Translations under genes and position numbers: made by a program
Shown here: positions 1 through 31,398 of the stretch, piece after piece
Layout of the letters: every line of letters starts with the position of its first letter
Position numbering within the stretch: position 1 is the first letter of the stretch
DNA from: a virus
IMG/VR virus record: IMGVR_UViG_3300029251_000054
Location: 1-31,398 of that record
Direction: 5' to 3' (one strand)
DNA: 31,398 nucleotides
Notes under the pieces: model-generated
What the model saw: the letters and a program-made list of their open reading frames with translations, nothing else
Databases searched by the model: none
What the model was told of the DNA's origin: nothing

Positions 1-98
1 TGGATGGGATAATTTTGAACATATTATAATTAAAGATAATTTGCCAGAACCTTGTGCCAAGACTTTAGAAAAAATTCTTATTCATAAGTATAATACTA
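1..98. repeat. Terminal overlap, left copy. Identical to 31300-31397, which closes the genome as a 31,299-bp circle
   Basis: Base-by-base comparison: 1-98 equals 31300-31397. The first mismatch is 99 (t) versus 31398 (g). The repeat lies inside a coding gene. Confidence 0.95.
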
Positions 99-454
99 TA
101 AATCCAAAATATGGATATAATGCTACAGATGGAGGTGACGGCACCTTAGGTATTGTATTCACTCAGGAAAGAAAAGATAAGATTAGAGCCAAATGTATTG
201 GAAGACATCCATCAGAAGAAACTCGAAAAAAGATGAGTAATAGTCATAAAGGTAAAGATTTGAGTTATTTAAATAATTCTTTTGGAAATAATCCTAGAGC
301 TAAAAAAGTAGGTGCATATAAAGACGATGTTCTTATTAAAGAATATGATTGTGCTGTTAGTGCTTCTTTAGATGTTGGAGTTCATAAAAATTCTATTTCT
401 AAAGCAATTAGAGGAGGCTATAAAGTAAAAGGATATATTTGAAAATACGCTTAA
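2..454 (+). CDS. GIY-YIG homing endonuclease #1, 3' part. The gene starts at 31163 and crosses the circular junction (196 aa in total)
   Basis: The frame is continuous with 31163..31398 through the terminal overlap. It is a paralog of 28202..28801 (KYGWDNFEHIIIKDNLPE.CAKTLE.ILIHKY). Track ORF 41..442 stops at TGA 440-442, but the frame stays open to TAA 452-454 and yields the C-terminal motif GYI-W-KYA. Confidence 0.85.
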
Positions 455-462
455 ACAGAAAT

Positions 463-487
463 AGGAGGGCAAATAACCCTCCTTTTT
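463..487. terminator. Rho-independent-type hairpin between convergent transcription units (probably bidirectional)
   Basis: The stem aggaggg (463-469) pairs with ccctcct (477-483). The loop is caaataa and a T-run extends to 487. It sits between the plus-strand stop at 454 and the minus-strand stop at 490. Confidence 0.7.
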
Positions 488-489
488 GT

Positions 490-630
490 TTATTCCATTA
501 TCTCAAATAATTTCTCATCTTTAGGTATTAATTCTCCAGTTTGTAAATCTACTAAGAATTTACTATTTTCGGGAATTACATAAACGTAATTTACTCCATT
601 TAAGCATAATTTATATGTAAAGTACTTCAT
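490..630 (-). CDS. Hypothetical small protein (46 aa)
   Basis: Minus-strand ATG at 630 and TAA at 492-490. Translation begins MKYFTYKLCLNGVNYVYVIPENSKFLVDLQTGELIPKDEKLFEIME. It starts 1 nt after the upstream gene's stop. It is below the track length cutoff. Confidence 0.5.
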   Translation of the reverse strand: MKYFTYKLCLNGVNYVYVIPENSKFLVDLQTGELIPKDEKLFEIME

Positions 631-631
631 A

Positions 632-766
632 TTAGTCAATATATGTTGCGTTAGGAATCTCTGGTTTTTCTTCTACTTCTTCCCAAACTAACCCTTTGTT
701 TTGGTTCTCTAATTGAACTATTCTATATTCTAGTTCTTCAAGCTTTTTAAATAAAAAATCATCCAT
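632..766 (-). CDS. Hypothetical small protein (44 aa)
   Basis: Minus-strand ATG at 766 and TAA at 634-632. Translation is MDDFLFKKLEELEYRIVQLENQNKGLVWEEVEEKPEIPNATYID. It is tightly packed in the operon. Confidence 0.5.
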   Translation of the reverse strand: MDDFLFKKLEELEYRIVQLENQNKGLVWEEVEEKPEIPNATYID

Positions 767-768
767 AA

Positions 769-981
769 TTAATCAAATTTTGAAATAAATGTAAAATCTC
801 TTTGTGCTAATACTCTATCTATAATATCTCCTAATTTCTTAGAATTCTCTTTAAATTCATTCATTCACTTATCAAACTCCTTAATAGTATCTTCTGACTT
901 TTTAAGAGTTTCTTTAATATCCGCAATTCTATTTAAATATGAATCTTGGTCTAATAATAATGTATCCTTTGCTTCTAACAT
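769..981 (-). CDS. Hypothetical coiled-coil protein (70 aa, code 4)
   Basis: Minus-strand ATG at 981 is preceded by aaaagg. The frame is open to TAA 771-769 if TGA 867-865 is read as Trp (..EFDK-W-MNEFKEN..). It overlaps the helicase 3' end by 53 nt. An alternative short start is the ATG at 864. Confidence 0.5.
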
Positions 982-2647: not shown

Positions 2648-2681
2648 AATAGTAATTTTTAATAAGTTAATAAATTTTATA

Positions 2682-2731
2682 TGTAACTTTTTTTATTTAT
2701 CTTACTACAAAATATTAGTAAAAAAGTTACA
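2682..2731 (-). repeat. 50-nt dyad-symmetric intergenic element, copy A. It may be a promoter or operator. Sense orientation is on the minus strand, 34 nt upstream of the helicase ATG
   Basis: The reverse complement tgtaacttttttactaatattttgtagtaagataaataaaaaaagttaca matches copy B (8391-8440) at 43 of 50 positions. The arms are TGTAAC(Y)TTTTTA / TAAAAA(A)GTTACA. Copy B shares the same downstream flank TATAAAAT. Confidence 0.6.
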
Positions 2732-2854
2732 GTAAAGGTTAAAATTAAACTGGGAATTAATCCCAGCTCAATTTTCAATATGGAAGTAGTTTTAGTTTGA
2801 TAGTACAAATATACAACAATTTTTCTCAATCTCCAAATAATTTAAGTATTATTT

Positions 2855-2888
2855 TTCTTGCATAATTAAAAATTTATTCATATATTTG
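2855..2888 (+). promoter_or_regulatory. Candidate Bacteroidota-type promoter for the plus-strand early operon (-33 cTTG, -7 TAtaTTTG)
   Basis: TATATTTG at 2881-2888 fits the TAnnTTTG -7 consensus exactly. ttcttg ends at 2860, 20 nt upstream. The site is 47 nt upstream of ATG 2935. It is a single occurrence, so the support is weak. Confidence 0.3.
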
Positions 2889-2934
2889 CACTATGAAAGT
2901 AAGACATAATATTAACAATTAAACTTTATAAATT

Positions 2935-3114
2935 ATGAAAACTAAACAAATTGAAGCACTTGAATATTTTCTTGATATATTAGATGGTAAGATTACTGAA
3001 GATGGTTCTATTGAGAAAGCTCAAGAATTATGTAATGAGGCATTAAAGGAGATTGAAACCAATGAAAAGGTAAAGAAATCCTCTTGGTTTTTTGGTTTAG
3101 GTATTTCTTTCTAA
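2935..3114 (+). CDS. Hypothetical early protein (59 aa)
   Basis: ATG 2935 to TAA 3112-3114. Translation begins MKTKQIEALEYFLDILDGKITEDGSIEKAQELCNEALKEIETNEK. It is not in the track because it is under 60 aa. It is the first plus-strand ORF after the divergent region. Confidence 0.55.
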   Translation: MKTKQIEALEYFLDILDGKITEDGSIEKAQELCNEALKEIETNEKVKKSSWFFGLGISF

Positions 3115-3125
3115 TATATTTAATT

Positions 3126-3365
3126 ATGAAAAAGATAAATAAAATATTAGCTGGATTATTAGTACTTAGCTTTATTATAGCTGGTATTAGAGTATATAAT
3201 GCTTATGAAGACTACCAAACTAAAACATTTGAGCTTAGATTAGAACAGGCAGAACTCCAGCATAAATTAGACTCTGTAATGTGGTATAATCCTGGAAGTT
3301 CAGAAGTATCTGAATTATATGAACAGTATTGTGATGTAACCTTAAAAATTCATAATGTAAGATAA
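3126..3365 (+). CDS. Small membrane protein (79 aa)
   Basis: In-frame ATG at 3126 within track ORF 3084..3365. The N-terminal hydrophobic helix is KILAGLLVLSFIIAGIRVY. The track start at 3084 is non-ATG and overlaps the preceding ORF. Confidence 0.6.
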   Translation: MKKINKILAGLLVLSFIIAGIRVYNAYEDYQTKTFELRLEQAELQHKLDSVMWYNPGSSEVSELYEQYCDVTLKIHNVR

Positions 3366-3802
3366 TGAAAACAGATATAAGAAGTTTAGTCTTTATAAAG
3401 AATCTATTTAAAGATAAATATAATATAGAAATAGAATGATGTAAAGACGATTATTCCAGATATGATGGAACATTTACTTGGAATAATATAGATTATATAA
3501 TTGAAGTTAAAAGGAGAAAATTTAAATCAGATAAATATCCAACTACAATTATAAACAGGGATAAGTTTGATATACTTAGTAAATGTAACTCTATATTAGT
3601 CATTATATTTGAGGATGGAGTTTATATTTATAAAGATGTAAAAAGAGCTTTTATTAAAGATTCAATGAAATATGGAAGAAGTACAACTGATTTTGGAGGA
3701 GAATATAAATACTCTTTAAAAACAGAGTTATCTTTAAAGAAAGCAATTAAATTAGAAATAGACACAACTTTTAGTAATTATATAAGAAATGACGACATAT
3801 AA
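3365..3802 (+). CDS. PD-(D/E)XK-like nuclease-fold protein (145 aa, code 4)
   Basis: The ATG overlaps the upstream TAA (taATG). It is missing from the track because of TGA 3437-3439 (..NIEIE-W-CKDD..). It has a D..(D/E)xK-like signature, YDG...DYIIEVKRRK. It ends in TAA at 3800-3802. Confidence 0.55.
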
Positions 3803-4280
3803 GGCAATACCTGGATATGAAAACTATTTAATAGGAACTGACGGTTCGGTCTTGAGTACTAGAACCTCAGTTCCGAAAAATATCAAACCTCAACTTCAAA
3901 ATAGTGGATACTATTATGTTACTTTATATAATCCGTTTGGGCCAAAGAAATACCTATTACATAGACTAATGGCAGAAGTTTTCATAGGTAAAAATGACTT
4001 ATGTATTAATCATAAGGACGAAAATAAGCTAAATAATAACTTAGATAATTTAGAGTACTGTACTTATGAGTATAACAATAATTATGGCAGTCATAACATT
4101 AAAATGGGAATTTCTCATAAGAAAGCAATTAAACAGCTATCCTTAGATAGAAGTTTTATTAAGAGATGAGATTCCGCAATAGATGCTGAACGGGAGCTTA
4201 ATATACAATCCAGAAACATTGTAAAGGTTCTTAAAGGTCAGCGAAAAACAGCTGGAGGATTTATTTGGGAATATGAATAA
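3789..4280 (+). CDS. HNH homing endonuclease #1 (163 aa, code 4)
   Basis: NUMOD4-like N-terminus (IPGYENYLIGTDGSV) and HNH_3-like INHKDENKLNNNLDNLEYCT. Track ORF 3789..4169 ends at TGA 4167-4169, but the frame continues to TAA 4278-4280. This adds the DNA-binding tail ..KTAGGFIWEYE. Confidence 0.85.
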
Positions 4281-4581
4281 CAATGAAATAATAGAAAAAT
4301 ACTATCCATTTATTATGGAGTTAAAAGAAAAATTTGGTGCAGATGATGATTGCACACAAATGGTATGTATCGCACTTCTGGAAACATCTAATTCCAAGCT
4401 TCAGTCATTAGATAGTAAGAATGAGCTGAAGTATTGGATTACAAGAGTATTTAAGAATAATTGGTTTTCTAAGAATAGTAGATACTATTACCAATATAAA
4501 AAGTACTATGAAATATTTAAAGAGCCATTAGAACAACAAACGGATAATTTAGAGGATTGGTTAAATGAAGCAGAAGATTAA
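4273..4581 (+). CDS. Sigma-70 family region-2-like protein (102 aa), N-terminal half of a split sigma-like factor
   Basis: The pattern ..GADDDCTQMVCIALLE..(n)..LKYWITRVFKNNWFSKNSR resembles ECF sigma regions 2.1-2.4. No region 4 is present in this ORF. It ends in TAA at 4579-4581. Confidence 0.5.
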   Translation: MNNNEIIEKYYPFIMELKEKFGADDDCTQMVCIALLETSNSKLQSLDSKNELKYWITRVFKNNWFSKNSRYYYQYKKYYEIFKEPLEQQTDNLEDWLNEAED

Positions 4582-4831
4582 TATTGATGATTTATTAATT
4601 GAGTATAACTTTGAAATAGATACCTTTACAGAGATGGATGATAGATTACTTGCAATTTATCCGAAATGAGAGGCATTAAATAGAGCATATAAGACCATAA
4701 TTATCTTATATGCTGAATATCGAAGTTATAGAGAAGTTGGGAAGATTCTGGGAATTAGTCATACTACCATAGCAAGGACAATAACTAACATTAGAAACAA
4801 AATATGTTATGGAAGTTTGGAAGAAGTATAA
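4565..4831 (+). CDS. Sigma-70 region-4-like HTH protein (88 aa, code 4), C-terminal half of a split sigma-like factor
   Basis: ATG 4565 lies 17 nt before the stop of the upstream ORF and is in a different frame. It has one in-frame TGA at 4667-4669 (YPK-W-EAL). LNRAYKTIIILYAEYRSYREVGKILGISHTTIARTITNIRNKI looks like a region 4.2 HTH. It is absent from the track. Confidence 0.55.
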
Positions 4832-5357
4832 AGATTATAACATTGAAGTAAGTAATACAGGAAAAGTTAGGACTACAGAAAGAGATGTATTATATAAAGA
4901 TGGAAGAAGACATCATTATGATAGTAAAGAGTTAAAACAACACATTATTAGGCAATACTATTATGTAACTTTAAGTATTGATGGCAAATCAAAGAATTTT
5001 AGAGTTAATAGGTTAGTTGCAGAATGTTTTATAGAAAATCCATATAATTTACCTATAGTGAATCACAAAGATGAAAACAAGTTAAATAACTCTGCAGACA
5101 ATTTAGAATGATGTACTGCCAGTTATAATAATACATATAATGATTCTCATTTAAAAAGAGGTGTTAACTTACAAAACAAACGAAGTAAAAAAGTTTACCA
5201 ATATAGTTTAGATGGAACTCTTATTAAGATATGGCCTTCTATAAGAGAGATACGTAGAGTAAAAGGATATGATAATGGTCAGATAAGTAAGTGTTGCAAT
5301 AATAAATTAAAAAATAATATTAGCTATGGGTATATTTGGAAGTATTCTATTGATTAA
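4809..5357 (+). CDS. HNH homing endonuclease #2 (182 aa, code 4)
   Basis: The track ORF ends at TGA 5109-5111, inside the canonical motif NHKDENKLNNSADNLE-W-CT. The frame continues to TAA 5355-5357 and has the C-terminal motif GYIWKY. Confidence 0.85.
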
Positions 5358-5379
5358 TTTTATAGTAATAATATATGTA

Positions 5380-5658
5380 ATGTCTGGTATAGATGTTCTA
5401 ATTAGAAAGAAGATATGGGAGCGTTTATATGGTAAAATGCCTTTTAATGAGAATTGGATGTCTAAACCTTGAGGATGTGAGTGGTGCTTAGGAACTTGAA
5501 TAGGTCTTATAAGCTTATTTTGGTTGGGATTTACTCAGATAAATATATTCTTAGTGCTAGTTATTGCTTTTTATAATTTTATTATAAAGGATTGTATGAT
5601 TCTAATTAAAGATATGATTACCAAACTAATAGATATAGTTTATAAATACTTGGATTAA
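5380..5658 (+). CDS. DUF1360-like small membrane protein (92 aa, code 4)
   Basis: ATG 5380. An in-frame TTG at 5350 would add a hydrophobic N-terminus. Two in-frame TGAs lie at 5470 and 5497 (KP-W-GCEWCLGT-W-IGLISLFWLG). The Cys/Trp motif plus TM helices are typical of DUF1360. It ends in TAA at 5656-5658. Confidence 0.6.
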
Positions 5659-5680
5659 AAATAATATATTTTAAATAAAA

Positions 5681-6013: not shown

Positions 6014-6374
6014 ATATCTTTATGCTGCAAGGTTATTTAACAAAGGATGGTCAAGGAATAAAGTAAGTGAAGAACTTCAAAGTAAATATAATGTAAGCCA
6101 ATCAACGGCTGCAAGATATATTGGAGAAGCTTATAAGATAATTGCTGAAAAGAATGATAACCTTATAAAAAATCTTAGACATATACAATTATCAAGATTG
6201 GAATCATTACTGGATACTGCTATTAGTAAGGGAGATATTAGAGCTGCAAATGAGATTATTAAGACTATAAATAGTATGTTTGGATTAAATCAACCTGAGA
6301 CTATTGTAGCTATTCAGAATAATGAAGTCCAGTTTAAATTTGGAGATCCAATTAACAATGACAAAAATATATAA
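5931..6374 (+). CDS. Terminase small subunit (putative, 147 aa)
   Basis: First ATG in track ORF 5925..6374. It has a basic N-terminus (KKKVGRPKK), an HTH-like NVSQSTAARYIGEAY and a helical C-terminus. It sits directly upstream of TerL and overlaps it. Confidence 0.6.
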   Translation: MKEQIKKKVGRPKKAEVEKEQIDEVKTKYLYAARLFNKGWSRNKVSEELQSKYNVSQSTAARYIGEAYKIIAEKNDNLIKNLRHIQLSRLESLLDTAISKGDIRAANEIIKTINSMFGLNQPETIVAIQNNEVQFKFGDPINNDKNI

Positions 6375-7605
6375 AGGATATAGCCCATTTATCTATCAAT
6401 TAAAGGTACATACTGCTTTAGAGCACTCTTATAGGTCTGGAAAAATATTTACTGTAAAAGCAAAGAGACAATGTGGTAAATCCTTTATGGCAGAAAATGA
6501 ACTATTACGATTTTCAATTAACTATCCTGGAAGTATTAGCTGTATTGTTGAACCAACTCTTACTAACTCCAGAAAGATATTTAAAGAGTTAGTAAAGGCA
6601 TTAGATGGCACAGATATTATTAAGAAAAAGAATGAATCTTTGCTTGAGATTGAATTTACTAATGGGAGTGAAATACTATTTAAATCTGCTGAGCAAAAAG
6701 ATTCATTACGAGGATTTACAGTTAGTGGAATATTAGTAATTGACGAAGCAGCTTATATATCAGATGAAGTATACGAAATTTTAACACCTATAGCTGATGT
6801 ATGAAATGCTCCAATACTTATAATTAGTACTCCAAGGTTTAGAGAAGGATTCTTTTATGAATGCTTTAAAAAAGGCTTTGATGGTAATTTTAGTAAATAT
6901 TATCAATCCTTTGATTGAGCATTAGAAGATACTTCTATGCTGTTAAGTGAGGATAAACTTGAAATGTATCGCCTTACAACCTCCAAAAATAAATTTAGAA
7001 CTGAATATCTTGGAGAGTTTGCAGATGATGATGGTTGCCTATTTAATAATATAGCTAACTGTATAATTGATAAAAAACCTGAATATCATAATCTCTATAT
7101 TGGAGTTGACTGGGCTACTGGTTCTGGTAAAGACTATACTTGTATTACAGCTTTAAATGAAAATGGGCAGATGGTCTTTATAAAGTATTTTAACAACAAA
7201 ACTCCAACAGAACAAGTTGATTTACTGACAAATATATTTACTGAGTATCAGGGATTTATAAAGATAGTTCAAGTTGAACAAAACTCAATAGGTTCAGTGT
7301 TTTATGATATTCTTGTAAAAAGGAATCCTAAATTACGGATAGTTAAGTTTTTAACTACTAATAAGTCTAAAGCAGCTATTGTAAATAAGCTACAAGCGGC
7401 ATTAGAAAATGAAAAGATTGGTATTTTAAAGGATGATAAACTATTAAATGAATTAAGACTATATGAAGCCAGTTATAATCCAAAGACTGGAAATGTATCA
7501 TATAATGCTCCATCTGGATTTAATGATGATACTTGTATATCTTTAATGTTAGCTTATGATGCTTTAAATACAAATAAAGGAACTTATAATATTGCAATTA
7601 AATAA
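6358..7605 (+). CDS. Terminase large subunit (415 aa, code 4)
   Basis: Track ORFs 6322..6804 and 6937..7605 share one frame and are joined through TGA 6802-6804 and TGA 6916-6918, with no TAA or TAG between. Walker A is KAKRQCGKSF and Walker B is ILVIDEAAY. The C-terminal half is RNaseH-like (IGVDWATGSGKDYT ... NDDTCISL). Confidence 0.85.
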
Positions 7606-8389
7606 TGATAAAGAATTGGAATGAAATGGATTTATCTCATTATAAAAGACTGTTTGAGATAATACGAAAAGACTGGGAAAATGAATTAGATATGAATTTA
7701 GCTATGGTATCTGTACTTAGTGATATACCTATAGAAGATATAACTAATATGGAAGTAAACAAGCTACAAGAGTTTATAAATAATCTTAAATTTATAGAGA
7801 CTCCATATAAGCCAAAAACCCCAGAAACTACTTATAATATTGGTAATAAAGAATATAAAGTCTTTTTTAATGTTAATAAGATGACGGCCAGTCAATATAT
7901 TGACTTTCAGAATTTTTATAAGCAGTATGATGATTTTATGCCTAATCTGGCAGCTTGTTTCTTACTACCTAATGGAAAGAAGTATGGAGAAGATTATGAC
8001 CCTATTGATGAGGCAGAATTCTTAAATACCCATCTAACAATAGATATATTTTCAGACATAATGTTTTTTTTTGTAAACTTATTGCAAGTATCAACGCTGA
8101 GTACCCTACACTCTTCGGAAAGGGAGATGAAGAAGAGACTAAGGAAAACAAGGGACAAACTGGAAAGGAGGAAACTTCTGAAGAGCTTAATACAGACGAG
8201 ACGATTAATCCTTTTACTCAAAAATGAAGCTGAATTATCTGAATAGATAAGGTAAGTGAAGTTACCAGATTTAATTGGCACCAGATATATGATATGCAGA
8301 TTAAAGAGTTTCTTAACATTATATGCTATGTTATAGATAAAGCTAATGAAGAAAATAGACAGATTGAAGAATGAAAAAGAAAACATTAA
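7605..8389 (+). CDS. Conserved phage protein that needs a -1 shift at a T9 run (about 261 aa). It may be assembly/chaperone-like
   Basis: Frame 0 runs from 7605 to the T9 run at 8064-8072. The -1 frame then runs to TAA 8387-8389 and gives a plausible sequence: ..FFFCKLIASINAEYPTLFGKGDEEE...PFTQK-W-S-W-II-W-IDKVSEVTRFNWHQIYDMQIKEFLN.. (4 TGA codons). The frame-0 continuation to 8246 is basic and low-complexity. Confidence 0.55.
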
Positions 8390-8390
8390 C

Positions 8391-8440
8391 TGTAACCTTT
8401 TTACTCATATTTGGTACTAAGATAATATAAAAAAGTTACA
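8391..8440 (+). repeat. 50-nt dyad-symmetric intergenic element, copy B (sense on the plus strand)
   Basis: Sequence tgtaacctttttactcatatttggtactaagataatataaaaaagttaca starts 2 nt after the stop at 8389. It is followed by TATAAAAT, as is copy A. It matches copy A(rc) at 43 of 50 positions and copy C(rc) at 42 of 50. Confidence 0.6.
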
Positions 8441-8447
8441 TATAAAA

Positions 8448-8470
8448 TAGGGAGTAAACCTCCCTATTTT
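8448..8470 (+). terminator. Rho-independent-type hairpin
   Basis: The stem tagggag (8448-8454) pairs with ctcccta (8460-8466). The loop is taaac and TTTT follows at 8467-8470. Confidence 0.6.
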
Positions 8471-8510
8471 CATTAACTACTAATATATAAAATAATATAT
8501 TTTAACAAAA

Positions 8511-8998: not shown

Positions 8999-11179
8999 AT
9001 GGCATTTATACCAAGTAAATTAGGAATATATAATGCATCAAGGAGTTTTCCTGTTAAATGGAATAATCCTGGATGGGGAATTACTGGAGAATATGATTAT
9101 TGGACTTGGGGAGATGATTATACTGAAGAAGGGCCTTTAGAGGTAACTATACAAGAGCCTAGTACTTCTGGATGTACAATACAATTTTTATCTCCTACAA
9201 CAATAACTACTGATTCTTCTACTGTATTTCATTTTTATCCTAGAGGTATTACTACTGCTTTATTAGGGGAAGATTTACCAATTAATTTACATAGTAAAGC
9301 TCCTGGATATTATCCTGCTAATGGCACCATTAAAGTACCAAATACTGGTGGAGAATATACAGTAGAGTATATATTAAATAGATCAGATATTATTAAATGA
9401 GATGCAGCAGTTGTTAATGCTACAGCTTTAGTTAATATGGAAGTTCTGGATTGAGATTCTTGCTCTATTAAGTTTAAAGTTACAGTAAGAGCTAATACTC
9501 AATGAAATACTGATTTAACTGCAACTATCCAATTAGGGGCTTATTATGATACTAATAAACTTATTAGTTATAGTTATGGCTTTAAGATTGAAAAGAGTAA
9601 TACTCCTGAAGATTTAAAGTTAGTAGTAACTCCTTCTTCTGGAACTTATGGAGCAGCAGCTTTTGTTACTGAAGAATTTCATTTAAGTACAACTAAAACA
9701 GAAGAAACTATTACTTCATTTAATGTTACCTGTCCACAAGCTAGTAATATTAAAAAGGATATTATTGATAACTACTTTGTATTAACTGTTCCAGAGAATA
9801 AAACTACTAATAATTTGGAGTTTAGTGCAATGGTTACTGCAACAACTTCTGGAGGTTATAATCTTGAAGCTACAGTTCCAATTAAACAAGCTGCAACGTA
9901 TTTAGTGATTCCTAATACTAATTATGAAGTAAGTTGGACTGCATCTACATTAAATATTATGGGAACAGGTTCTAATAACTTAGATGATGTTGTATTTAGT
10001 ATTCCTGTAGGTTGGATTAGTGGACAGAAGATAACTGTAAATTCTCAAGGTGTAGCAACTATTAGTTTGAACATTGCAGAAAATTCAGGATTATCTTCAA
10101 GAAAAGCAACCATTGGAGTATCTGTTATAAAGAATAGTTCAAGTATTATTAATTTATCTATTAATATTACACAATCTGTTAAATCTGATATATCTCCTAT
10201 TTGGAAAGATTATGTTTGGGAAGAAATTATCAGTTCTGATTTTATTGAATATCATCTAGATTATGCAGGAGAAATGGTGTATGCAGGTAAAGCTTATAAA
10301 TATCCTGAAACTGATAGAGTAGAGTTTTTATTAAATAATGTTGCTGAAAATTATCTATCTAACGGTATTATATTTAATACTTCTAAAACTATAATATCTC
10401 CAGAATATTTGAAACCATTTACATTAATAACTTCATCTGGAAATGAAAAACCAATTACTTTTTTCAATGATTGGAGTTATAAAGATAGAGATTTGACTAA
10501 AGGTACTATGTTAAGTGATCCTATTACTGGTTTAGTTGATCCAAGACAATATTTAGTAGCAAGTTGAATTTTACCAACTGGAACGGGAGTTGTTAATAGA
10601 TTTTTTTATGTAGATGGAACATCAACTGCTATAGATATTAGTTTAAATTCTGGAATTAATGGATATACATATACAGAAGATTTAAGCAATAAACTATGGC
10701 CTTGTGGGAGCTATTTAATAGTAGGATTTGTAGAAGACGGAAATATTAGTGATAGACAGATTAGATATGATATAGATACTACAGGTAAAGATTATGTGTT
10801 ATATTATACTAATTCAGCAGGAGGGTGGGATTCATTACTTGTTGAGGGTAATGTTAAAAAGAATGATGAGATTAAATCTGAAACATATACTCGCAAGGTA
10901 TTAAATACATCTCAAGAATTTGCAAGGAATAAGTATTTAAATACTATAACTTCAAGCTGGATTCTTTATACTGGTTATTTAAATGATATTCAAGCTTCTA
11001 AGATGTTTAATCTAATTGAGAGTACCAAAGTATATTTGCATAATCTTAAAGATAATACTATTACTCCAGTATTAATTACAGATACAAATTGTGAATATAA
11101 AACTTATACTAATCAAGGTAAGAATAAGTTCTACTATACAATTAATGTAGAAGCTTCTCAAGCTACTTATCGTAAATAA
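8999..11179 (+). CDS. Large tail/virion protein with Ig-like (BACON-like) repeats (726 aa, code 4)
   Basis: Track ORFs 8999..9400, 9815..10567 and 10796..11179 share one frame. I checked the gaps codon by codon and they contain only TGA (9398, 9452, 9503, 10565), with no TAA or TAG. The repeated signature ..N(I/T)..N.....R.A.I.V (AENSGLSSRKATIGVSV) is present. Confidence 0.8.
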
Positions 11180-17375: not shown

Positions 17376-17385
17376 AAATGTTTAA

Positions 17386-17435
17386 TGTAACTTTTTTATT
17401 CTTATTAACTACAAAATATGAGTAAAAAGGTTACA
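17386..17435 (-). repeat. 50-nt dyad-symmetric intergenic element, copy C (inverted relative to copy B)
   Basis: The reverse complement tgtaacctttttactcatattttgtagttaataagaataaaaaagttaca matches copy B exactly over the first 22 nt. It lies between the TMP stop (17375) and the protease ATG (17488). Confidence 0.6.
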
Positions 17436-17487
17436 TTAGATATTCTAAAAATATTACAAATTTATAAAGTGCTATATATTAATAAAA

Positions 17488-20290: not shown

Positions 20291-20815
20291 ATGGCTTGTT
20301 TAATAACTATCGCTGGTATTACCCTGGATTGCGAATCTTCGCTTGGTGGTATCAAACAGGTATGGATTACTCAGTACGATAATGTTAAGAGTGTAACTGT
20401 AGATGATGAGACTAATCAAATCTCAGCTATTACTCTTGAGGCAGATGCTAAATGGTATAATTACCAATTCCGCAAAGGTACTGGTTCTCTAACCTCAACA
20501 TTGAACGTTGACGAAACTGCAGGAACCAACTATGTAAGTAATGAGCTTGCTCTTGTATTTACAAAGATGGAGACTAAGAAAAGAATCGAGATTGCTGCTC
20601 TTTCTATTGGACAACTTGTAGTTGTTGTAGAAGATTCTAATGGCAAATACTGGTTCTTAGGAAAAGATGACTATGTAAGCGCTTCCGCTGGTACGGGTGT
20701 TACTGGTACTGCAAAAGGTGATCAGAACGCTTATACGCTGACTTTAGCTACTGACTCTGAATCATATCCTTATGAGTTGAGTGCTGAAGCTATTCAAAGT
20801 GTTGTAGGTGCTTAA
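20291..20815 (+). CDS. Putative major tail (tube) protein, 174 aa
   Basis: It is a short, beta-rich, Gly/Thr-rich protein (..VVVVEDSNGKYWFLGKDDYVSASAGTGVTGTAKGDQNAYTLTLATDSE..). Its composition resembles the high-expression capsid gene. A strong terminator follows. A head decoration protein is the alternative. Confidence 0.5.
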   Translation: MACLITIAGITLDCESSLGGIKQVWITQYDNVKSVTVDDETNQISAITLEADAKWYNYQFRKGTGSLTSTLNVDETAGTNYVSNELALVFTKMETKKRIEIAALSIGQLVVVVEDSNGKYWFLGKDDYVSASAGTGVTGTAKGDQNAYTLTLATDSESYPYELSAEAIQSVVGA

Positions 20816-20824
20816 CAACAGAAG

Positions 20825-20858
20825 AGGGGCGAGTATTAATTTACTTGCCCCTTATTTT
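20825..20858 (+). terminator. Strong rho-independent terminator after the capsid/tail-tube genes
   Basis: The stem aggggcgagta (20825-20835) pairs with tacttgcccct (20842-20852), including one G:U pair. The loop is ttaatt and tattttg follows. Confidence 0.75.
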
Positions 20859-20898
20859 GTTTATGGACAGATAATTAACTATTTATATTTTATAGAAA

Positions 20899-20988
20899 AT
20901 GGCTATTAAATATACAACACCAGAAGTGGCAAAATTATCAGAAGAACAGAAAGCAATAGCTACTAATAAAAACTGAGTATTAGCGTAA
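20899..20988 (+). CDS. 29-aa remnant homologous to the C-terminal tail of the LRR proteins
   Basis: MAIKYTTPEVAKLSEEQKAIATNKN-W-VLA aligns with the last ~25 aa of 23447..24307 (..SLTEEQKSQITSKGWSITY) and 25666..26634 (..ALTEEQKALATSKNWTLASA). A TAG lies immediately upstream in frame. TGA is at 20974-20976. Confidence 0.45.
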
Positions 20989-23445: not shown

Positions 23446-23446
23446 T

Positions 23447-24307: not shown

Positions 24308-24308
24308 T

Positions 24309-24545: not shown

Positions 24546-24547
24546 TT

Positions 24548-25150
24548 ATGATTATACTTAAAAATACTAAAAACACACAAACTTTCTATGTAAGTAAGAA
24601 ATGTGGAATTGAATCTGGACAACTTCCTGTTGGTTCTTATACTAAGATTGAATCAGATGAAAGATTCCAGCCTAAAGGTAATTACATTTCCGAAGAGAAA
24701 GCAGAAGAGTTAATTAATACTAAAGTAACAGAAAGTATTGAAGATCAAGTTCCTCCTTTAGTAGATCAATCTATAGATGCTAAGCTTGTGCCAATTAATA
24801 CTGAGATTACTAATCTTAAAGGGGAAGTTGAGGAGTTAGAAACTTCTAAAATGGAAGTATTTCAAGCAAATCAACCTCTATCTTTACATAGAAATGGAGA
24901 AGGTCTGCAATTATCTGTAGATTTAAGTAACTATGCAACTAAAGCAGAAATTCCTGATATTAGTGATTTTGCTACTAAAGAAGAAGTTGCACTTAAAGCA
25001 GATAAAAGTGAGTTATCTAATTATGTAACTACAGAGGCATATAATACAAAGATGACAGAGTTAGATGGAGAAATCTCAGCAATTAAAGCTCAGATTGGTA
25101 ATATTTCAACTACTCTTGATACAATTAATGGTGAAATTCCAAATGAATAG
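24548..25150 (+). CDS. Tail fibre protein 2 (200 aa), a short paralog of fibre 1
   Basis: It shares ..[40 protein letters not shown].. with fibre 1 (..TQLSVDLSGYQPVGDYATN.., KADKSEIPTK). It ends in TAG, 8 nt into the HNH gene. Confidence 0.7.
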
Positions 25151-25664
25151 AGTATTAACAAATTATCCTAACTATAGTGTATCTTCTACAGGAGATGTAT
25201 ATAGTAACCCATTGACTTTTAAAGATTCTATTGGAAGAACCAGAAAACAAATACATAAAAAGCTAAAACAGCATATAGATAAATATGGCTATAATTATGT
25301 AATTCTAGTATCTGGCTTAGATAAACCTAAAGCTATTAAAGTTCACAGACTAGTAGCAGAAGCATTTATTCCAAATCCTGACAATCTACCATATGTTAAC
25401 CATATAAATGAAAATAAGACAGATAATAGGGTAGAAAATTTAGAATGATGTGATGCAAAGTATAATAATACATATGGAACTAGAATAAATAGATGTATTG
25501 ATAAAATTAGTAAACCTGTAGGGCTATTTATTAATGATTTACTAGTTAAAACATATAAAAATGCAATTGAAACATCAATAGATGGGTATACTCATAGTAG
25601 AGTTATAGATTGTCTTAAAGGAAGAACAGACACTTATAAAGGGGTAAAATTTAAATATATCTAA
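25143..25664 (+). CDS. HNH homing endonuclease #3 (173 aa, code 4)
   Basis: ATG 25143 lies within track ORF 25065..25448. The motif [20 protein letters not shown] carries TGA at 25446-25448. The frame continues to TAA 25662-25664. Confidence 0.85.
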
Positions 25665-25665
25665 T

Positions 25666-26634
25666 ATGGCAAATACAATTTCTGATAAATTAGAGTATCT
25701 TGAAGGCACTAAGAGTGCTATTAAAGATGCTATTATAGCTAAAGGTGTAGCTGTTGAGGATACTGCAACCTTTAGAAGTTATGCAGAAAAGATTGGGGAA
25801 ATATCTGGAGGTGGAGGAGGTAAAATTGATTTATCTAAATTTCCTTTATCAATAGGATATAGTGATATCACTAAGTTTAGAGATGGTGGTGAAGCTAAAT
25901 TAGGGGATTTGTTTGTACTAAATAAGTCAAGCTGAGAGTCTTTTTTTAATGGATGTTATGCTACTAGAGATGCTGAATTCACTTTTGATTGCCAAGGTAA
26001 AACCGCTGATTATTTGTTTGCTGCAAACCGAGATCCTAGTTATATAACAAAAATAACATTATTAAATGTGGGGGATCAGGGCATTAGTCTATTTGAAAAT
26101 CAAACGCAATTAGTCGAAATAGATGCCGATTTACATTTAATTAATTACTCTAATGTATTTAAATATTGTAGAAGCCTAAAAGTTCTACCTAGACTTGATT
26201 TCTTTAATTCTGTACAAAATGAATTTACTTTTTCAAACTGTAGTAGCTTAGAAGAAATTCCTGATATAACTTGTAAAAGTGCTCCTAATAGTTCATTGAT
26301 GTTTGAAAATTGTACATCATTAAAACGTTTAGGTAAAATTACAATAAGTGATTTACAGCCATTCTCACAATCTGCGTTTGGTTATACTTGATCTAGCTCT
26401 TATTATTTAAATAACTTAACAGATTTTGGTGGTGTAACTACACCACATAACTTGTATTTGAATAATCTTCCTGCACTTACATCTCAGTCGGTCGATAATG
26501 TTCTAGAAGCAGTATCAGATTTAACTGGAACTTCTACCCAAACTATTACATTTAATTCTACGGTTTATGCAGCTCTTACAGAAGAGCAAAAAGCTTTAGC
26601 TACATCCAAGAACTGGACATTAGCTTCTGCATAG
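25666..26634 (+). CDS. BspA/DUF285-type leucine-rich-repeat protein 2 (322 aa, code 4)
   Basis: Track ORFs 25666..25935, 26014..26391 and 26452..26634 share one frame, joined through TGA 25933 and 26389. It has F.(N/G)C.SL repeats (FFNGCYAT, FKYCRSLKVLP, FSNCSSLEEIP, FENCTSLKRLG). The C-terminal tail is shared with LRR protein 1. Confidence 0.75.
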
Positions 26635-26640
26635 TAAATT

Positions 26641-26667
26641 TAGGGAGATTTTATTCTCCCTATTTTT
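26641..26667 (+). terminator. Rho-independent terminator after the fibre/LRR module
   Basis: The stem tagggaga (26641-26648) pairs with tctcccta (26655-26662). The loop is ttttat and TTTTT follows at 26663-26667. Confidence 0.7.
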
Positions 26668-26741
26668 ATGTTAATACATATACATAGTCTTTTATATTTT
26701 AAGAAAAAGATATGTAAATTAATGTAAAACTATTGCAAAAT

Positions 26742-27134: not shown

Positions 27135-28212
27135 AACAAAAGTACAATTAAGTGCAATTGATCCTGTTGTAGTGTCAAATTTAGTACTTCCTGTAGAATC
27201 GAGAAAAAGGGGTTCTGATTGGATTTCTTGGGGTGAAGATAATCGCTATCCATTATATCTATGGGATTTATACTTAAATGTAGCTACTCTTCAATCTATC
27301 ATTAATGGGACTGCTGACTTTATTGTTGGTAATGATGTTAAATGCAATGCTCCAGGATTTGAAGTAACTGTAAATAAGAAAGGTGAAACTATTATGGATA
27401 TTATGCGTAAAGTATCTAAAGATAAGATGATTTTTGGAGGATATGCTTTACAAATAATTAGAGATATGTTAGGTAGAGTTTCAGAGATCTATTATCTTGA
27501 CTTTATGAAGATTCGTTCTGATGAAAAGAATGAAGTATTCTATTATGCCGATGATTGGTCTGCTTGGTCTATTAAAGCTATCAAATATCCAAAATTTAAT
27601 TATTCAGATGATAATCCTACAAGTGTTGTTTATAATAAGGGCTATATAACAAGAAAAGTATATCCAGTTCCTGTTTATGGTGCAGCTATCCTATCTTGCG
27701 AAACTGAGAAGAATATTAATGAGTTCCATCTAAATTCTCTTCATAACGGATTTATGGGCAATCTTATCATTAACTTTAATAATGGACAGCCTACAGACGA
27801 AGTTAAAGAAGAGATTGAGATGAATATTAATGAGAAATTCTCAGGATTTCAAAATGCTGGTAGAGTTCTTATTTCATATAATGATGATGAGACAAATAAG
27901 ACTACTATTGAGCGTTTAGACTCTGATGATTTTGATGAGAAATATAGTGCTTTATCTGAAAGAACAAGAGAACAGATATTCTGCGCATTTAGAGCTAATA
28001 GTGTACTTTTTGGCCTTAACTACTCAAGTGGATTCAACGAACAAGAATTTAATGAAGCTTTTAAACTTTATAATCGTACAGTAGTTAGACCAATTCAGGT
28101 CGAAATAGTAGATACATTTGATAAGATATTTGGAATGAAAGGTTCAATAACTATAACTCCTTTTAGCTTAACTCCAAATGGACAAGAAGATAGCAAACAA
28201 AATGTTGAATAA
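27121..28212 (+). CDS. Portal protein (363 aa)
   Basis: ATG 27121 (MSENKTKVQ..) lies within track ORF 27064..28212. The size and sequence character fit small siphovirus portals (..FGGYALQIIRD..VSEIYYLDFMKIR.., ..NGFMGNLIINFNNG..). It has no TGA and all Trp codons are TGG. Confidence 0.65.
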   Translation: MSENKTKVQLSAIDPVVVSNLVLPVESRKRGSDWISWGEDNRYPLYLWDLYLNVATLQSIINGTADFIVGNDVKCNAPGFEVTVNKKGETIMDIMRKVSKDKMIFGGYALQIIRDMLGRVSEIYYLDFMKIRSDEKNEVFYYADDWSAWSIKAIKYPKFNYSDDNPTSVVYNKGYITRKVYPVPVYGAAILSCETEKNINEFHLNSLHNGFMGNLIINFNNGQPTDEVKEEIEMNINEKFSGFQNAGRVLISYNDDETNKTTIERLDSDDFDEKYSALSERTREQIFCAFRANSVLFGLNYSSGFNEQEFNEAFKLYNRTVVRPIQVEIVDTFDKIFGMKGSITITPFSLTPNGQEDSKQNVE

Positions 28213-28801
28213 TTATACTGTTTATTGCCATATAAATAAGTATAACAATAAGCTATATTTTGGCATTACTGGACAAAGTGTGCAAGATAGGTGAAAAAAT
28301 GGATATGGATACTCTACTCAAGCTTACTTTTATAAAGCGATACAAAAATATAGCTGAGATGGATTTGAACATATCATAATTAAAGATAATTTACCAGAAA
28401 CTTGTGCTAAGACATTAGAAAGGATATTGATACATAAATATAAAACAAATACTCCTGAAAATGGTTACAATATAACATCAGGAGGAGAAGGTACATACGG
28501 GTATTCTTTTTCTAATGAGAGTAGAGCAAAAATGTCAAATTCTAAAAAAGGTAAAACACCCTGGAATAAAGGAATCTATACTTTGGAAACACTTATTAAA
28601 ATTGGAAATGCTTCCAAAGGACGAATTACTAGAGTTAAGCCTATATTAAGATTTGATATGAATGGGAATTTTATTGCAAGATATAATTCAATGAAAGAAG
28701 CTGTTAAATCAGTTAATGGAGAACGTTCTGGATTATATTTAGCTTTAAAAGAAAATAGACCTTATAAAAACAATAAATTTATTTATGATGGAACAACTTA
28801 A
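28202..28801 (+). CDS. GIY-YIG homing endonuclease #2 (199 aa, code 4), inserted after the portal gene
   Basis: ATG 28202 overlaps the portal 3' end by 11 nt. The N-terminus is YTVYCHINKYNNKLYFGITG. In-frame TGAs lie at 28292 (DR-W-KNGYGY) and 28355 (KYS-W-DGFEH). Only the last 124 aa appear in the track. Confidence 0.85.
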
Positions 28802-29474
28802 CTATAGAAATGTACTGCTTATTTCAGAAGACTATATAAAGTCAAATTCTACATTAGATAACAATATATCGGGTAAATATTTACAAGCAGCCATCACAAG
28901 TGCTCAGGATGTAGAACTTCAGTCAACTATTGGTACTAAGCTATTGGAAGCATTACAAAAGAAATGTATTAATTGGATTGATCCTCATACCCCAGTTCAT
29001 CCAATAGAACCTCCTGAGCCACTTCCAAGTGATTCTATTGATGATTCTGATAACTACAGATATAAAGAGCTATTAGACTATTATGTTCAGCCTTATTTAC
29101 TTTATCAAGTACTTAGCGAGATAGTAATTCCTATATCTTATAAGCTTGGTAATTTTGGAGTTATGAGAACTGATGATGAGAAGGATATTGCTGCTGAAGC
29201 AAGTCAAGTAAATCAAATTAAGAAGTATTATAGAGATAAAGCGGATTTCTTTAAGACTCGTTTACAGGACTTTATAATTACATATTATAATGAATTCCCT
29301 GAGCTTTATACATATAAGCCATTAAAGGATATGTTTCCCAATCTTTACTCTAGCTCATCTTGCAATATTTGGCTTGGTGGAGCAAGAGGTAAAGGATGGA
29401 GCGTTAAACCTGGAGAGGGGCCTCTTCAAAGAGCTTATGATTTCCCTTCAAGTAATAATAAAAAGAGTAAGTAA
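28785..29474 (+). CDS. Putative head-tail connector/head-completion protein (229 aa)
   Basis: Intact track ORF. The N-terminal pattern ..EDYIKSNSTLDNNISGKYLQAAITSAQDVELQSTIGTKLLEAL resembles gp6-like connector families. The position after the portal gene fits. Confidence 0.4.
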   Translation: MMEQLNYRNVLLISEDYIKSNSTLDNNISGKYLQAAITSAQDVELQSTIGTKLLEALQKKCINWIDPHTPVHPIEPPEPLPSDSIDDSDNYRYKELLDYYVQPYLLYQVLSEIVIPISYKLGNFGVMRTDDEKDIAAEASQVNQIKKYYRDKADFFKTRLQDFIITYYNEFPELYTYKPLKDMFPNLYSSSSCNIWLGGARGKGWSVKPGEGPLQRAYDFPSSNNKKSK

Positions 29475-29476
29475 TT

Positions 29477-29902
29477 ATGACCTACTATGAGATAATTAGC
29501 AATTTAAAAGCTTGTGCATTAGAAGAGCCAAACATCAATTTTGTAGGAAGTAAAGATATTTATGAGTTAAATAGCTTACCAACTATTGAGTATAATGTGT
29601 TCTATATAACACCTAATACTTTTAGTGTAGATGAAGATACTATTACTTACTCTTTAAACCTATACTTCGTATCAAGATGGGATGAGACTGATAACAACCA
29701 ATTGGAGGAACAGTCAGCAGGTATGCTTGCACTGCAAAATATAATTAATCGTTTTAATAACCTATATCCAGAAGTTGAAATAGCTTATCCTTTAATTTAT
29801 ACTCCATTCTATCAAAAGTTCAAAGATATTACCTGCGGAGTGTTTGTTAGAGCTGATTTCCAAGTTGACAACACACTGGGTACTTGCACTGATGATATGT
29901 AA
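29477..29902 (+). CDS. Hypothetical structural (neck?) protein, 141 aa
   Basis: Intact track ORF, tightly coupled to its neighbours. The function is inferred from position only. Confidence 0.5.
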   Translation: MTYYEIISNLKACALEEPNINFVGSKDIYELNSLPTIEYNVFYITPNTFSVDEDTITYSLNLYFVSRWDETDNNQLEEQSAGMLALQNIINRFNNLYPEVEIAYPLIYTPFYQKFKDITCGVFVRADFQVDNTLGTCTDDM

Positions 29903-30558
29903 TGGAAAATAAATTAAATTGGTTTGGTAAAGTATTAGAATGGGTTGATAAATATGGATTACTAAAGATATTTAAAGCAGGGATTGGATTAATATTTATA
30001 TCCTATGTAATGGTTATTACACTTAATCCCTCTATTGTTTATAATAAGGTTGTAACCTATATTGAACAAACTCACAATTCTAAAACTATTGCAAGAAATG
30101 AAGCAACTTTGAAGATTAAATATAAACTTAAAGAATTGCTTCAAAGCACAAATGCTGATAGAGCTTGGGTTATTGAATATCATAATGGAACTACTGGATT
30201 AGGAGGACTTCCGTTTACTTATGGAGTAATGAATGCCGAGGAAGTAAAACCAGGAATAAGATCTGTAAGTAGCCATTATAAAGATTTCCTGTTATCTGAC
30301 TATACTTCAATTATAGAGTTTTCTAAGAATGATGGATGGTTTGGTAATATAGATAGTTTAGAAGCAGATGATCCAAGATTATATTATGCATTTAAATCCA
30401 ACAGAGTGAATGAAATAGCAGTATTTTATTTAAAGACTGAGGATAAAGATATTGGCATTTTAGGTTTGTCATTCTGTGATACACCTATGCCTTATGATAC
30501 TTGAGTACATCTAAGAAGAGCTGGAATACAGATAAGTGTAATTTTAAATAAAATATAA
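29902..30558 (+). CDS. N-terminally membrane-anchored protein (218 aa, code 4), first gene of the lysis cluster
   Basis: The track ORF ends at TGA 30502-30504, and the frame continues to TAA 30556-30558. The TM helix is IFKAGIGLIFISYVMVITL. It is followed by a ~150-aa soluble domain (ADRAWVIEYHNGTTGLGGLPFTYG..). Confidence 0.6.
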
Positions 30559-30559
30559 T

Positions 30560-30721
30560 ATGAAATATTGGTTAAAATATGTAATTGCAGTAGTTATTAT
30601 TCTGCTGATATGTTTACTAATCAAAGTAATTCCTTTTTGGATTACTGTAGTATTACTTGTAATAGGTGTGGCTTCACATCTATTTTATAGATATGTTATG
30701 ATTAAAGATATACTTAAATAA
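30560..30721 (+). CDS. Putative holin (53 aa, two TM helices)
   Basis: Translation is MKYWLKYVIAVVIILLICLLIKVIPFWITVVLLVIGVASHLFYRYVMIKDILK. Its TAA overlaps the endolysin ATG (taATG). It is below the track cutoff. Confidence 0.6.
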   Translation: MKYWLKYVIAVVIILLICLLIKVIPFWITVVLLVIGVASHLFYRYVMIKDILK

Positions 30722-31170
30722 TGAAGTATTTCACACTCGAAGAATTAACAAGATCTGATACTGCTTCAATTAAGCATATAAATAACACTCCAGATGAGAG
30801 TATAACAGAGCACCTGATAGAGTTGGTCGAGAAGCTTTTAGACCCAATAAGAGAGAGATGGGCAAAGTATTGTGATGACAATCAGCTTGGCAATGCAGGC
30901 ATCAGGATTTCCTCTGGTTTTAGGAATAAGGAGCTTAATAAAGCAGTAGGAGGATCTTTAACATCTGCACATCTAACAGGGTATGCAGCAGACCTTCAAA
31001 ATGTCTCTGGAAGTAGAGAAGAGTTTTATCAATTCCTATTAAACTTTTTGAAGGATAGAAATTTCGATGAATGTTTTATAGAAAAAAGTAGTACATCTCA
31101 GTGAGTGCATATTGCTTTATATAGTATTAAAGGATTACAACGAAGAAAAGTAGGTAAATTATATGTATAG
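30721..31170 (+). CDS. Endolysin, peptidase M15 (VanY/L-Ala-D-Glu peptidase-like), 149 aa, code 4
   Basis: The motif is SGFR...LN...GG..TSAH-x6-D (SAHLTGYAAD). The track ORF stops at TGA 31102-31104, and the frame continues ..SQ-W-VHIAL.. to TAG 31168-31170. This restores the distal His of the Zn site. Confidence 0.8.
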
Positions 31171-31398
31171 TATATATGTTCATTTAAACAAGATTAACGG
31201 TAAGAAATATATTGGTATTACTTGTAAGAAGCCAGAAATACGATGAGCAAATGGTCTGGGTTATAAAAAACAGCCGTTTTGAAACGCTATAACAAAATAT
31301 GGATGGGATAATTTTGAACATATTATAATTAAAGATAATTTGCCAGAACCTTGTGCCAAGACTTTAGAAAAAATTCTTATTCATAAGTATAATACTAG
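31163..31398 (+). CDS. GIY-YIG homing endonuclease #1, 5' part (continues at position 2 through the circular junction)
   Basis: ATG 31163 overlaps the endolysin 3' end by 8 nt. Translation is MYSIYVHLNKINGKKYIGITCKKPEIR-W-ANGLGYKKQPF-W-NAITKYGWDNFEH.., with TGA at 31244 and 31280. Confidence 0.85.
31300..31397. repeat. Terminal overlap, right copy (identical to 1-98)
   Basis: See the left copy. Confidence 0.95.

Follow-up and report, generated by a model that had tools for sequence, protein, structure and literature searches.

A complete 31-kb human-gut phage that reads TGA as tryptophan with no decoding genes of its own in sight

A virus of 31,398 nucleotides, held as IMG/VR record IMGVR_UViG_3300029251_000054 and analysed here over its full length (hereafter the window), reads the stop codon TGA as tryptophan, and does so with no recognisable decoding genes of its own. 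The window is a tailed phage of the human gut. Its expression signals, endolysin and relatives make its host most likely a walled, standard-code member of the Bacteroidota of the human gut, probably one of the Bacteroidales, and the account that we favour, tentatively and short of conviction, is that UGA is decoded in trans in such a cell: host tRNA-Trp would read the codon as a near-cognate, with the help of a phage factor. A preliminary description of this DNA had called the meeting of a recoded genome, no visible decoding genes and a peptidoglycan endolysin a paradox of host and code; those three elements stand, and what finds no support is its inference that the host itself has UGA = Trp as its native code.

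That TGA is recoded is plain from the architecture of the genome. Treating it as a sense codon raises the stop-to-stop coverage of open reading frames (ORFs) from 0.81 under the standard code (code 11) to 0.93, against 0.81 when TAG is given a sense meaning instead, and lengthens the longest ORF from 588 to 1147 codons. In the curated gene models, 40 in-frame TGA codons lie in 21 of 41 genes and TGA is never used as a terminator, the stops being TAA (30) and TAG (8). At the TGA positions of the window, TGA recurs 369 times in close relatives and is replaced by TGG 166 times; in standard-code relatives TGG stands at 25 of 69, with Tyr and Phe codons next and Gly codons rare. Because these positions align with TGG and aromatic codons, TGA is Trp (code 4) and not Gly, and code 25, the TGA = Gly code of candidate phyla radiation (CPR) hosts, is rejected on the same alignment. 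The recoding claimed at the outset is thus borne out, and the TGA codons singled out at 3437 and 4667 are both in frame. The first occupies an invariant Trp position of a 145-amino-acid (aa) protein, for which the label of nuclease comes solely from an invariant D..ExK motif.

The terminase, the tail genes, the C-terminal half of a sigma-like factor, the endolysin and a set of selfish endonucleases all carry TGA and therefore need read-through. In the endolysin the consequence of stopping can be spelled out. This protein, already taken for an M15 peptidoglycan peptidase, matches Peptidase_M15_3 (PF08291) with an E-value of 5e-13 and 49.6 bits (Pfam cutoff 23.2), and its H-D-H zinc ligands (H-x6-D...H) are intact in the sequence within the motifs SAHLTGYAAD and VHIA. 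Its single TGA (31102-31104) falls two codons 5' of the last zinc-ligand His, so that read-through is needed and stopping there would yield an inactive product of 127 aa; at least one TGA is present in 29 of 29 orthologues. Public protein sets hold many 127-aa truncated endolysin calls, their genes having been called under code 11. The nearest cultured matches are endolysins of Bacteroides fragilis siphophages (44-46% identity), followed by those of crAss-like and Prevotella phages. Immediately 5' lies a small gene without a family match, whose size, two hydrophobic segments and position suggest a holin.

Nothing in the genome is recognisable as a means of decoding this codon. Default ARAGORN reported no tRNA and no tmRNA on the genome, Rfam had no hit at its gathering threshold nor, at E<=10, any that resembled a tRNA, and relaxed and mitochondrial-mode ARAGORN returned only AT-rich calls inside coding sequence. 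Release factors 1 and 2 (RF1, RF2) and tryptophanyl-tRNA synthetase (TrpRS) were likewise missing from Pfam scans of all window proteins. The absence extends to relatives, as no tRNA, tRNA(UCA) included, was found in ~45 genomes of the clade, for which the capsid and helicase loci with 10-kb flanks amount to end-to-end coverage. The same tools work on a sister phage, in which ARAGORN detects a tRNA(CTA) whose Rfam score is 54.4 bits, the gathering score being 29. For the window itself the initial reading of the letters proved correct, as did, in essence, its list of five intergenic gaps, save that two have different boundaries (8247-8510 and 20816-20987). These gaps are filled by a divergent promoter region, intrinsic terminators and an AT-rich hairpin repeat.

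Missing sequence offers no way out. Positions 1-98 are repeated at 31300-31397 with 100% identity (repeat D1), and the genome (~30% GC) is therefore circular and complete with no part missing; the same phage, its capsid protein unchanged, turns up in assembled human-gut metagenomes (JGI, ENA) as contigs of 31.35-31.43 kb. In IMG/VR there are ~45 close relatives with capsid identities of 87-98%, plus two at 68% (L036 and L037), all of them TGA-recoded. The nearest standard-code relative, L038 (capsid 66%, GC 28%; 30,128 nt after completion with L101, IMGVR_UViG_3300029905_000019), terminates its genes with TAA (29), TAG (3) and TGA (2). Each TGA stop is backed by TAA or TAG within 0-2 codons, hence the choice between code 11 and code 4 would make no difference to how the genome is read, and this is the precursor state, depleted of TGA, that Borges et al. 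described. Its early module is a different one, without the helicase, the nuclease-like gene or the two small early genes gp2935 and gp3126 of the recoded clade.

Homologues of the helicase led to a sister clade, L097-L100, whose phages are 22 kb long and share the gene set, and in which it is TAG that has been recoded (ORF coverage of 0.93 with TAG as sense against 0.68 under code 11). In these phages a tRNA(CTA) sits beside the helicase gene (8781-8867 in L097) with a 17-nt insertion at the position of the variable arm, and TGA is a real stop in 9 of 23 genes of L097. A related TAG-recoded prophage, L096 (5902-21740), adjoins a Phage_int_SAM_5 integrase and a tRNA-Thr(CGT) within standard-code flanks of 38.6% GC, whose GlnA belongs to a 90% cluster named mostly Lentimicrobium, a genus of Bacteroidota. 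A further helicase homologue is located in a Hymenobacter chromosome. The sister clade resembles the window in its superfamily 2 (SF2) helicase (45-50% identity), capsid, portal, DUF6712, LRR_5 tail protein, M15 endolysin and Bacteroidota-type promoters, and in sparing helicase and capsid the recoded codon; unlike the window it recodes TAG, carries its own tRNA and keeps TGA as a stop. A 148-kb IMG/VR contig (L018/L080, IMGVR_UViG_3300045988_175865) was considered as a host contig and set aside, for it holds no host DNA: its 148,631 nt are a head-to-tail concatemer of a ~29.8-kb phage, with ~116.5-118.8 kb identical to the last 2.26 kb.

How the codon is used says more about how it is read. 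TGA supplies 32% of the Trp codons of the window (40 against 86 TGG), compared with a share of 64-92% for the A-ending member of the other NNA/NNG pairs. In the Mycoplasma phage phiMFV1, TGA makes up 87% of Trp codons, in keeping with its other pairs, and extends to helicase and structural genes. Across the clade of the window the codon is spread very unevenly (Table 1), near-absent from the helicase, capsid, scaffold and holin genes and abundant in homing endonucleases, the sigma region 4 half and tail fibre genes, with the terminase and endolysin between them. The TAG sister L097, whose reliance on a suppressor of its own is certain, spares the same genes its own recoded codon (no TAG in helicase, capsid or tail-tube-like gene; 11 in the terminase). 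The base following an in-frame TGA is T in 16% of cases against 25% after TGG, and A in 46% against 35% (p=0.006). A U in this +4 position strengthens bacterial termination, and its depletion suggests competition with RF2. TGA behaves here as a costly codon that competes with termination.

Signals of gene expression point towards the Bacteroidota. None of 38 genes has GGAG, GAGG or AGGA at -17 to -4 of its start, the leaders being A/T-rich instead of bearing Shine-Dalgarno sites. The divergent region 2648-2934 holds two promoters of the Bacteroidota type, one an exact match to the consensus, and strict divergent copies occur there in relatives. The pairing of TTTG at -33 with TAnnTTTG at -7 is the consensus of the primary sigma factor of Bacteroidota. 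Nearly every clade member has one or two strict copies (TTTG-N19-21-TA(TA/TC)TTTG) 5' of its helicase, the spacers differing, and this conservation spans members whose helicases are just 70-73% identical; the same motif precedes the tRNA of the sister phage L097. The single promoter match first noticed in the window is in this way confirmed and extended to nearly all of the clade. A Codetta survey of 42,109 genomes placed UGA = Trp lineages in Bacillota, Patescibacteriota, Pseudomonadota and Verrucomicrobiota only, and none in Bacteroidota.

With no decoding genes in the phage, and yet a UGA that must be read, decoding is most likely supplied in trans within the infected cell. The mechanism that we tentatively prefer would run as follows. 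The phage, encoding neither tRNA, release factor nor TrpRS, has reassigned UGA to Trp only in part. Host tRNA-Trp(CCA) would read UGA near-cognately, by C-A wobble at the last base of the codon, while competing with an RF2 that the host presumably retains, and a candidate early product of the phage might tilt the balance. Genes needed before efficient suppression, or without it, would be kept TGA-free, among them those for the helicase, for the first two early products of the plus strand and for the virion proteins of highest abundance. A UGA-permissive variant of the host tRNA-Trp, for example one whose anticodon stem has 4 bp or one bearing a Hirsh-type change, could contribute. Such a variant form (versus the 5-bp stem) has been described as the sole tRNA-Trp of 24 Bacteroidales species, and in Bacteroides oleiciplenus it co-occurs with the canonical 5-bp form. 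A documented way of obtaining UGA = Trp without a UCA anticodon exists, with such tRNAs in some standard-code Bacteroidales; unlike what is proposed for the phage, the standard-code carriers in that study still stop at UGA, and a link to the phage host is hypothetical. In the most specific version of this idea, which we think rather unlikely though worth stating, a small early protein would disable or out-compete RF2, or alter tRNA-Trp or the ribosome, so that tRNA-Trp(CCA) decodes UGA efficiently; were this true, a 31-kb phage would be driving a change of code by a protein and independently of tRNA.

A phage factor, if there is one, can be sought only among the early genes that are free of TGA, at 929-2647, 632-766, 490-639, 2935-3114 and 3126-3365. 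Their products have no match in Pfam or PHROG, and all but the largest are tiny, with no homologue whose function is known. The largest, a protein of 572 aa, likewise has no sequence match in Pfam, PHROG or the PDB, and its AlphaFold2 (AF2) model (pLDDT 80) retrieves DEAD-box helicases, Mfd, RecQ, UL9 and UvsW in Foldseek (E ~1e-8); as its fold is that of a generic SF2 helicase, it is rejected as a decoding factor.

Several observations weigh against near-cognate decoding in a Bacteroidota host. One tail gene contains eight TGA codons, each of which would need efficient reading, and we know of no Bacteroidota in which near-cognate reading of UGA has been shown at such a level. The early operons are not strictly TGA-free: in a small gene following the helicase (769-930), the TGA at 865-867 is kept by 26 of 28 relatives, the other two having TGG, and the nuclease-like third gene of the plus strand carries TGA in every clade member. 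A strict model in which all immediate-early genes lack TGA therefore holds only in part, broken by the conserved codon after the helicase. No phage protein resembles, in Pfam or PHROG, any factor known to act on RF2, on tRNA or on the ribosome. The per-gene counts, including the single TGA among 131 helicase Trp codons, are drawn from related genomes with few Trp positions (~5 in the helicase), and their statistical weight is limited accordingly. As to the host, integrated or binned relatives are all more distant than the clade itself, making the link indirect. A scan of GTDB with a capsid profile found only phage-sized contigs in mixed metagenome-assembled genomes (MAGs) of Clostridia, Lachnospiraceae, Bacteroidales and one Methanosphaera, the closest binned capsid relatives (49-60%) being labelled Clostridia, Lachnospiraceae or Faecalimonas and those binned with Bacteroidales being more distant (39-41%). 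Labels of MAG bins are weak evidence of host, and they cut against the Bacteroidota.

Foremost among the competing explanations, and one that we regard as possible but unlikely, is that in the same host TGA is read by a genuine tRNA(UCA) supplied from the chromosome, a prophage, a plasmid or a co-infecting recoded phage, for instance a crAss-like one. Among the crAss-like phages of Bacteroidetes, those that have recoded TGA do carry genes for suppressor tRNAs, and the mismatch between recoding and suppressor tRNAs among them led Yutin et al. to propose host-encoded suppressors, or very divergent ones, for the genomes that lack them. Borges et al. suggested that recoding could serve to sense co-infecting phages. 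A cognate tRNA would readily explain efficient reading of genes with up to eight TGA codons, and the sister clade of the same family does use a tRNA for TAG. The difficulty is that ~45 genomes from many samples are all tRNA-free, so that the dependence would have to be both stable and widespread, and that a constitutive UCA suppressor would misread the TGA stops of the host itself; nor do our data link any tRNA(UCA) to the host. Avoidance of TGA and the context bias around it fit inefficient or competing decoding equally well.

A walled host whose native code assigns UGA to Trp (code 4, no RF2) was the reading preferred in the preliminary description, on the argument that decoding must be available from the start of infection. 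It would account for the lack of decoding machinery anywhere in the clade and for TGA in about half of the genes, some of them early in operons; code-4 lineages beyond the Mollicutes do exist (Patescibacteriota JAKLIH01 and some Verrucomicrobiota), and the sister L038 is compatible with either code. We nevertheless judge such a host improbable. The helicase, gp2935 and gp3126 are free of TGA clade-wide but for one helicase codon, so that the argument from early decoding is weakened. The TGA share stays at 32% despite a strong bias for A-ending codons, well below that of phiMFV1, a phage whose host natively uses code 4; the codon is kept out of the helicase, capsid, scaffold and holin genes; and the depletion of T at +4 suggests that RF2 is present. 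Promoters and leaders are of the Bacteroidota type, in which the 42,109 genomes contain no code-4 member, and related phages use TGA as a stop, one of them integrated in a standard-code genome. Of the three explanations that had been offered at first, the walled code-4 host is now the least likely, and a suppressor in trans and an unrecognised mechanism keep their place.

That the phage itself encodes a highly unusual decoder RNA, truncated or embedded in or antisense to a coding region, is a possibility raised by both Borges et al. and Yutin et al., and here it seems quite improbable. Relaxed ARAGORN does call three candidates with a TCA anticodon (10061-10158, 26198-26261 and 30273-30336), one of them in 9 of 9 near-identical relatives. 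All three lie in coding sequence, have AT-only stems and no T-loop, and are poorly conserved: the first is missing from 15 of 19 relatives that are 93-97% identical, and in the last the universal U33 becomes C in L062 through a synonymous change. The Rfam search that scores the sister tRNA at 54 bits sees nothing tRNA-like in the window, and the gaps are already occupied by promoters, terminators and a hairpin repeat confined to the nearest relatives. That repeat is no decoding RNA either, being a long AT hairpin that is unlike a tRNA. Least credible of all, to the point of being highly improbable, is a wall-less Mollicute host of classical code 4 with a structural or non-lytic M15 domain: the low GC of 30%, TGA = Trp and the absence of Shine-Dalgarno sites (of which some mycoplasmas also have few) would suit it, but the M15_3 ligands are intact, the gene adjoins a holin-like one, its product has 44-46% identity with the endolysins of Bacteroides phages in culture, TGA accounts for 32% of Trp codons and not for the 87% seen in phiMFV1, and the promoters are those of Bacteroidota.

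Recoding without a phage tRNA is a known open problem, and the window presents no new phenomenon and calls for no new host lineage or code. The preliminary description had taken a suppressor tRNA to be usual in recoded phages of standard-code hosts; surveys say otherwise, with a suppressor detected in ~35% of code-4 phage genomes by Borges et al., who also found RF1 and TrpRS code-change genes to be rare even among known recoded phages. The window is like the TGA-recoded gut phages of that work (Borges et al. 2021/2022, Jade and Agate; Ivanova et al. 2014) in its low GC and in a TGA that means Trp and never stop. As in the clades of Borges et al., a near relative on the standard code ends few genes with TGA and backs those stops up, the recoded codon sits in structural, lysis and selfish genes with a replication gene spared, and many of the published genomes are likewise without a detectable suppressor. 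It differs from Agate (~127 kb) in its size, from Jade in having no RF1 or TrpRS operon, and from the published phages in general in that ~45 complete genomes of the clade are free of any tRNA, for which incompleteness is no explanation; the published clades are enriched for the recoded codon in lysis genes, whereas here the holin, and the capsid too, avoid TGA.

With the TGA-recoded crAss-like phages of Yutin et al. the window shares Bacteroidetes as probable host phylum, a TGA = Trp that is found mostly in late genes, switches of code over short phylogenetic distances and many homing endonucleases, and it departs from them in having no crAss signature genes, a genome three to six times smaller and no tRNA of any kind. 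Like phiMFV1, which infects a native code-4 host, it reads TGA as Trp with no suppressor tRNA in the phage genome, that of phiMFV1 having no need of one; unlike phiMFV1, where TGA enters every gene class, it excludes the codon from key genes. No peptidoglycan hydrolase was found in the annotated stretch of phiMFV1 examined.

Recoding without a suppressor was noted in 2014, 2021 and 2022, and could formerly be ascribed to incomplete genomes or to tRNAs missed in very large phages. The present clade removes those excuses, with dozens of complete ~31-kb circles, all tRNA-free and with little non-coding space, and a sister that bears a tRNA. It also offers a very small early gene set in which to seek a factor that switches the code, so that, given a Bacteroidales host, the question becomes experimentally tractable.

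Table 1. Features of the window and the use of TGA in its genes (an empty cell marks a value not given; clade values are TGA as a share of Trp codons unless stated otherwise)
Feature	Coordinates	Strand	In the window	Across the clade
Complete circular phage genome, ~31.3 kb	1..31398		98-nt end repeat is assembly overlap	
GIY-YIG homing endonuclease	31154..31398, continuing 99-454 over the circular junction	+	TGA at 31244, 31280, 440	
Three small conserved genes 3' of helicase	769-930, 632-766, 490-639 (span 490..930)	-		
SF2 helicase-like early gene, 572 aa	929..2647	-	0 TGA	1/131 (28 genomes: 1 TGA, 130 TGG)
Bacteroidota-type promoter, exact consensus TTTG-N20-TATATTTG	2806..2837	-	faces helicase gene	
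Bacteroidota-type promoter, near-consensus cTTG-N20-TATATTTG	2857..2888	+	faces plus-strand early operon	
gp2935	2935-3114	+	TGA-free	0/7
gp3126	3126-3365	+	TGA-free	0/20
Clade-specific nuclease-like protein, 145 aa	3365..3802	+	TGA at 3437; invariant D34..E47-x-K49 (PD-(D/E)xK-like)	
Split sigma-like pair	4273-4581 + 4565-4831	+	second half matches Sigma70_r4/HTH, TGA at 4667	85% (region 4 half)
HNH genes, homing-endonuclease type	3789-4280, 4809-5357, 25143-25664			64-80% (homing endonucleases)
GIY-YIG/NUMOD genes	18697-19335, 28178-28801, 31154-31398 + 99-454		18697-19335 on weak NUMOD-like match only	64-80% (homing endonucleases)
Large terminase (TerL; Pfam)	6322..7605	+	TGA at 6802, 6916	48%; at least 1 TGA in 20/20 orthologues
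Three large tail genes, 726/1144/919 aa	8999..17375	+	4/8/4 in-frame TGA	
Tail fibre genes				79-96%
Scaffold				0/25
Major capsid protein	19350-20252	+	TGA-free	1/155
Next abundant structural protein	20291-20815	+	TGA-free	1/114
Putative holin, 53 aa	30560..30721	+	two hydrophobic segments; TGA-free	0/58
Peptidase_M15_3 endolysin	30721..31170	+	TGA at 31102 (codon 128)	42%; TGA in 29/29 genomes
Intrinsic terminators	461-488, 8449-8475, 20817-20861, 26641-26662			
AT-rich hairpin repeat, 67-90 nt, three copies	2672-2745 (+), 8382-8448 (inverted), 17376-17445 (+)		intergenic	

The remaining gene content is that of a tailed phage without cultured relatives among the records searched. On the structural side Pfam recognises a large terminase, a portal, an XkdF-type protease, a tail-tip domain, DUF6712 and a weak BspA-type leucine-rich repeat (LRR), and beyond these a Sigma70_r4/helix-turn-helix (HTH) protein, three HNH and three GIY-YIG/NUMOD homing endonucleases and Peptidase_M15_3; no integrase was found in the phage genome. 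Neither the capsid protein nor the whole genome matched a cultured relative among 50,697 phage records, and the terminase found only distant matches (25-28%). The BACON-like domains named at the outset are sub-threshold matches in the C-terminal domains of the large tail genes, to BACON_2 (E 7e-4, 19.9 bits against a cutoff of 25) and BACON (E 0.003-0.013).

About a tenth of the genome is taken up by the six genes of homing-endonuclease type, whose share of TGA is among the highest of any genes. The sigma-like factor consists of two overlapping ORFs in different frames, with the Pfam match (region 4/HTH) in the second only; the split is retained in the standard-code sister L038 (6565-6873 and 6866-7186 of the full contig), and the pair could be two subunits or the product of a programmed frameshift. 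A motif, AAAATAATATATTTTAA, is shared by 5655-5680 and 8485-8510 (repeat D5), just 5' of the starts of the genes at 5681 and 8511, and may be a promoter for the phage sigma factor or a translation signal. Between convergent genes, a GC-rich hairpin (461-488, AGGAGGG...CCCTCCT) flanked by runs of A and T looks like a bidirectional intrinsic terminator; a 'tRNA-Ser' that relaxed ARAGORN called across it is an artefact. The AT-rich hairpin repeat forms a long fold, TGTAACTTTTTT...AAAAAAGTTACA, with z-scores down to -7, is detectable in the closest relatives only, and may be a small mobile or regulatory element.

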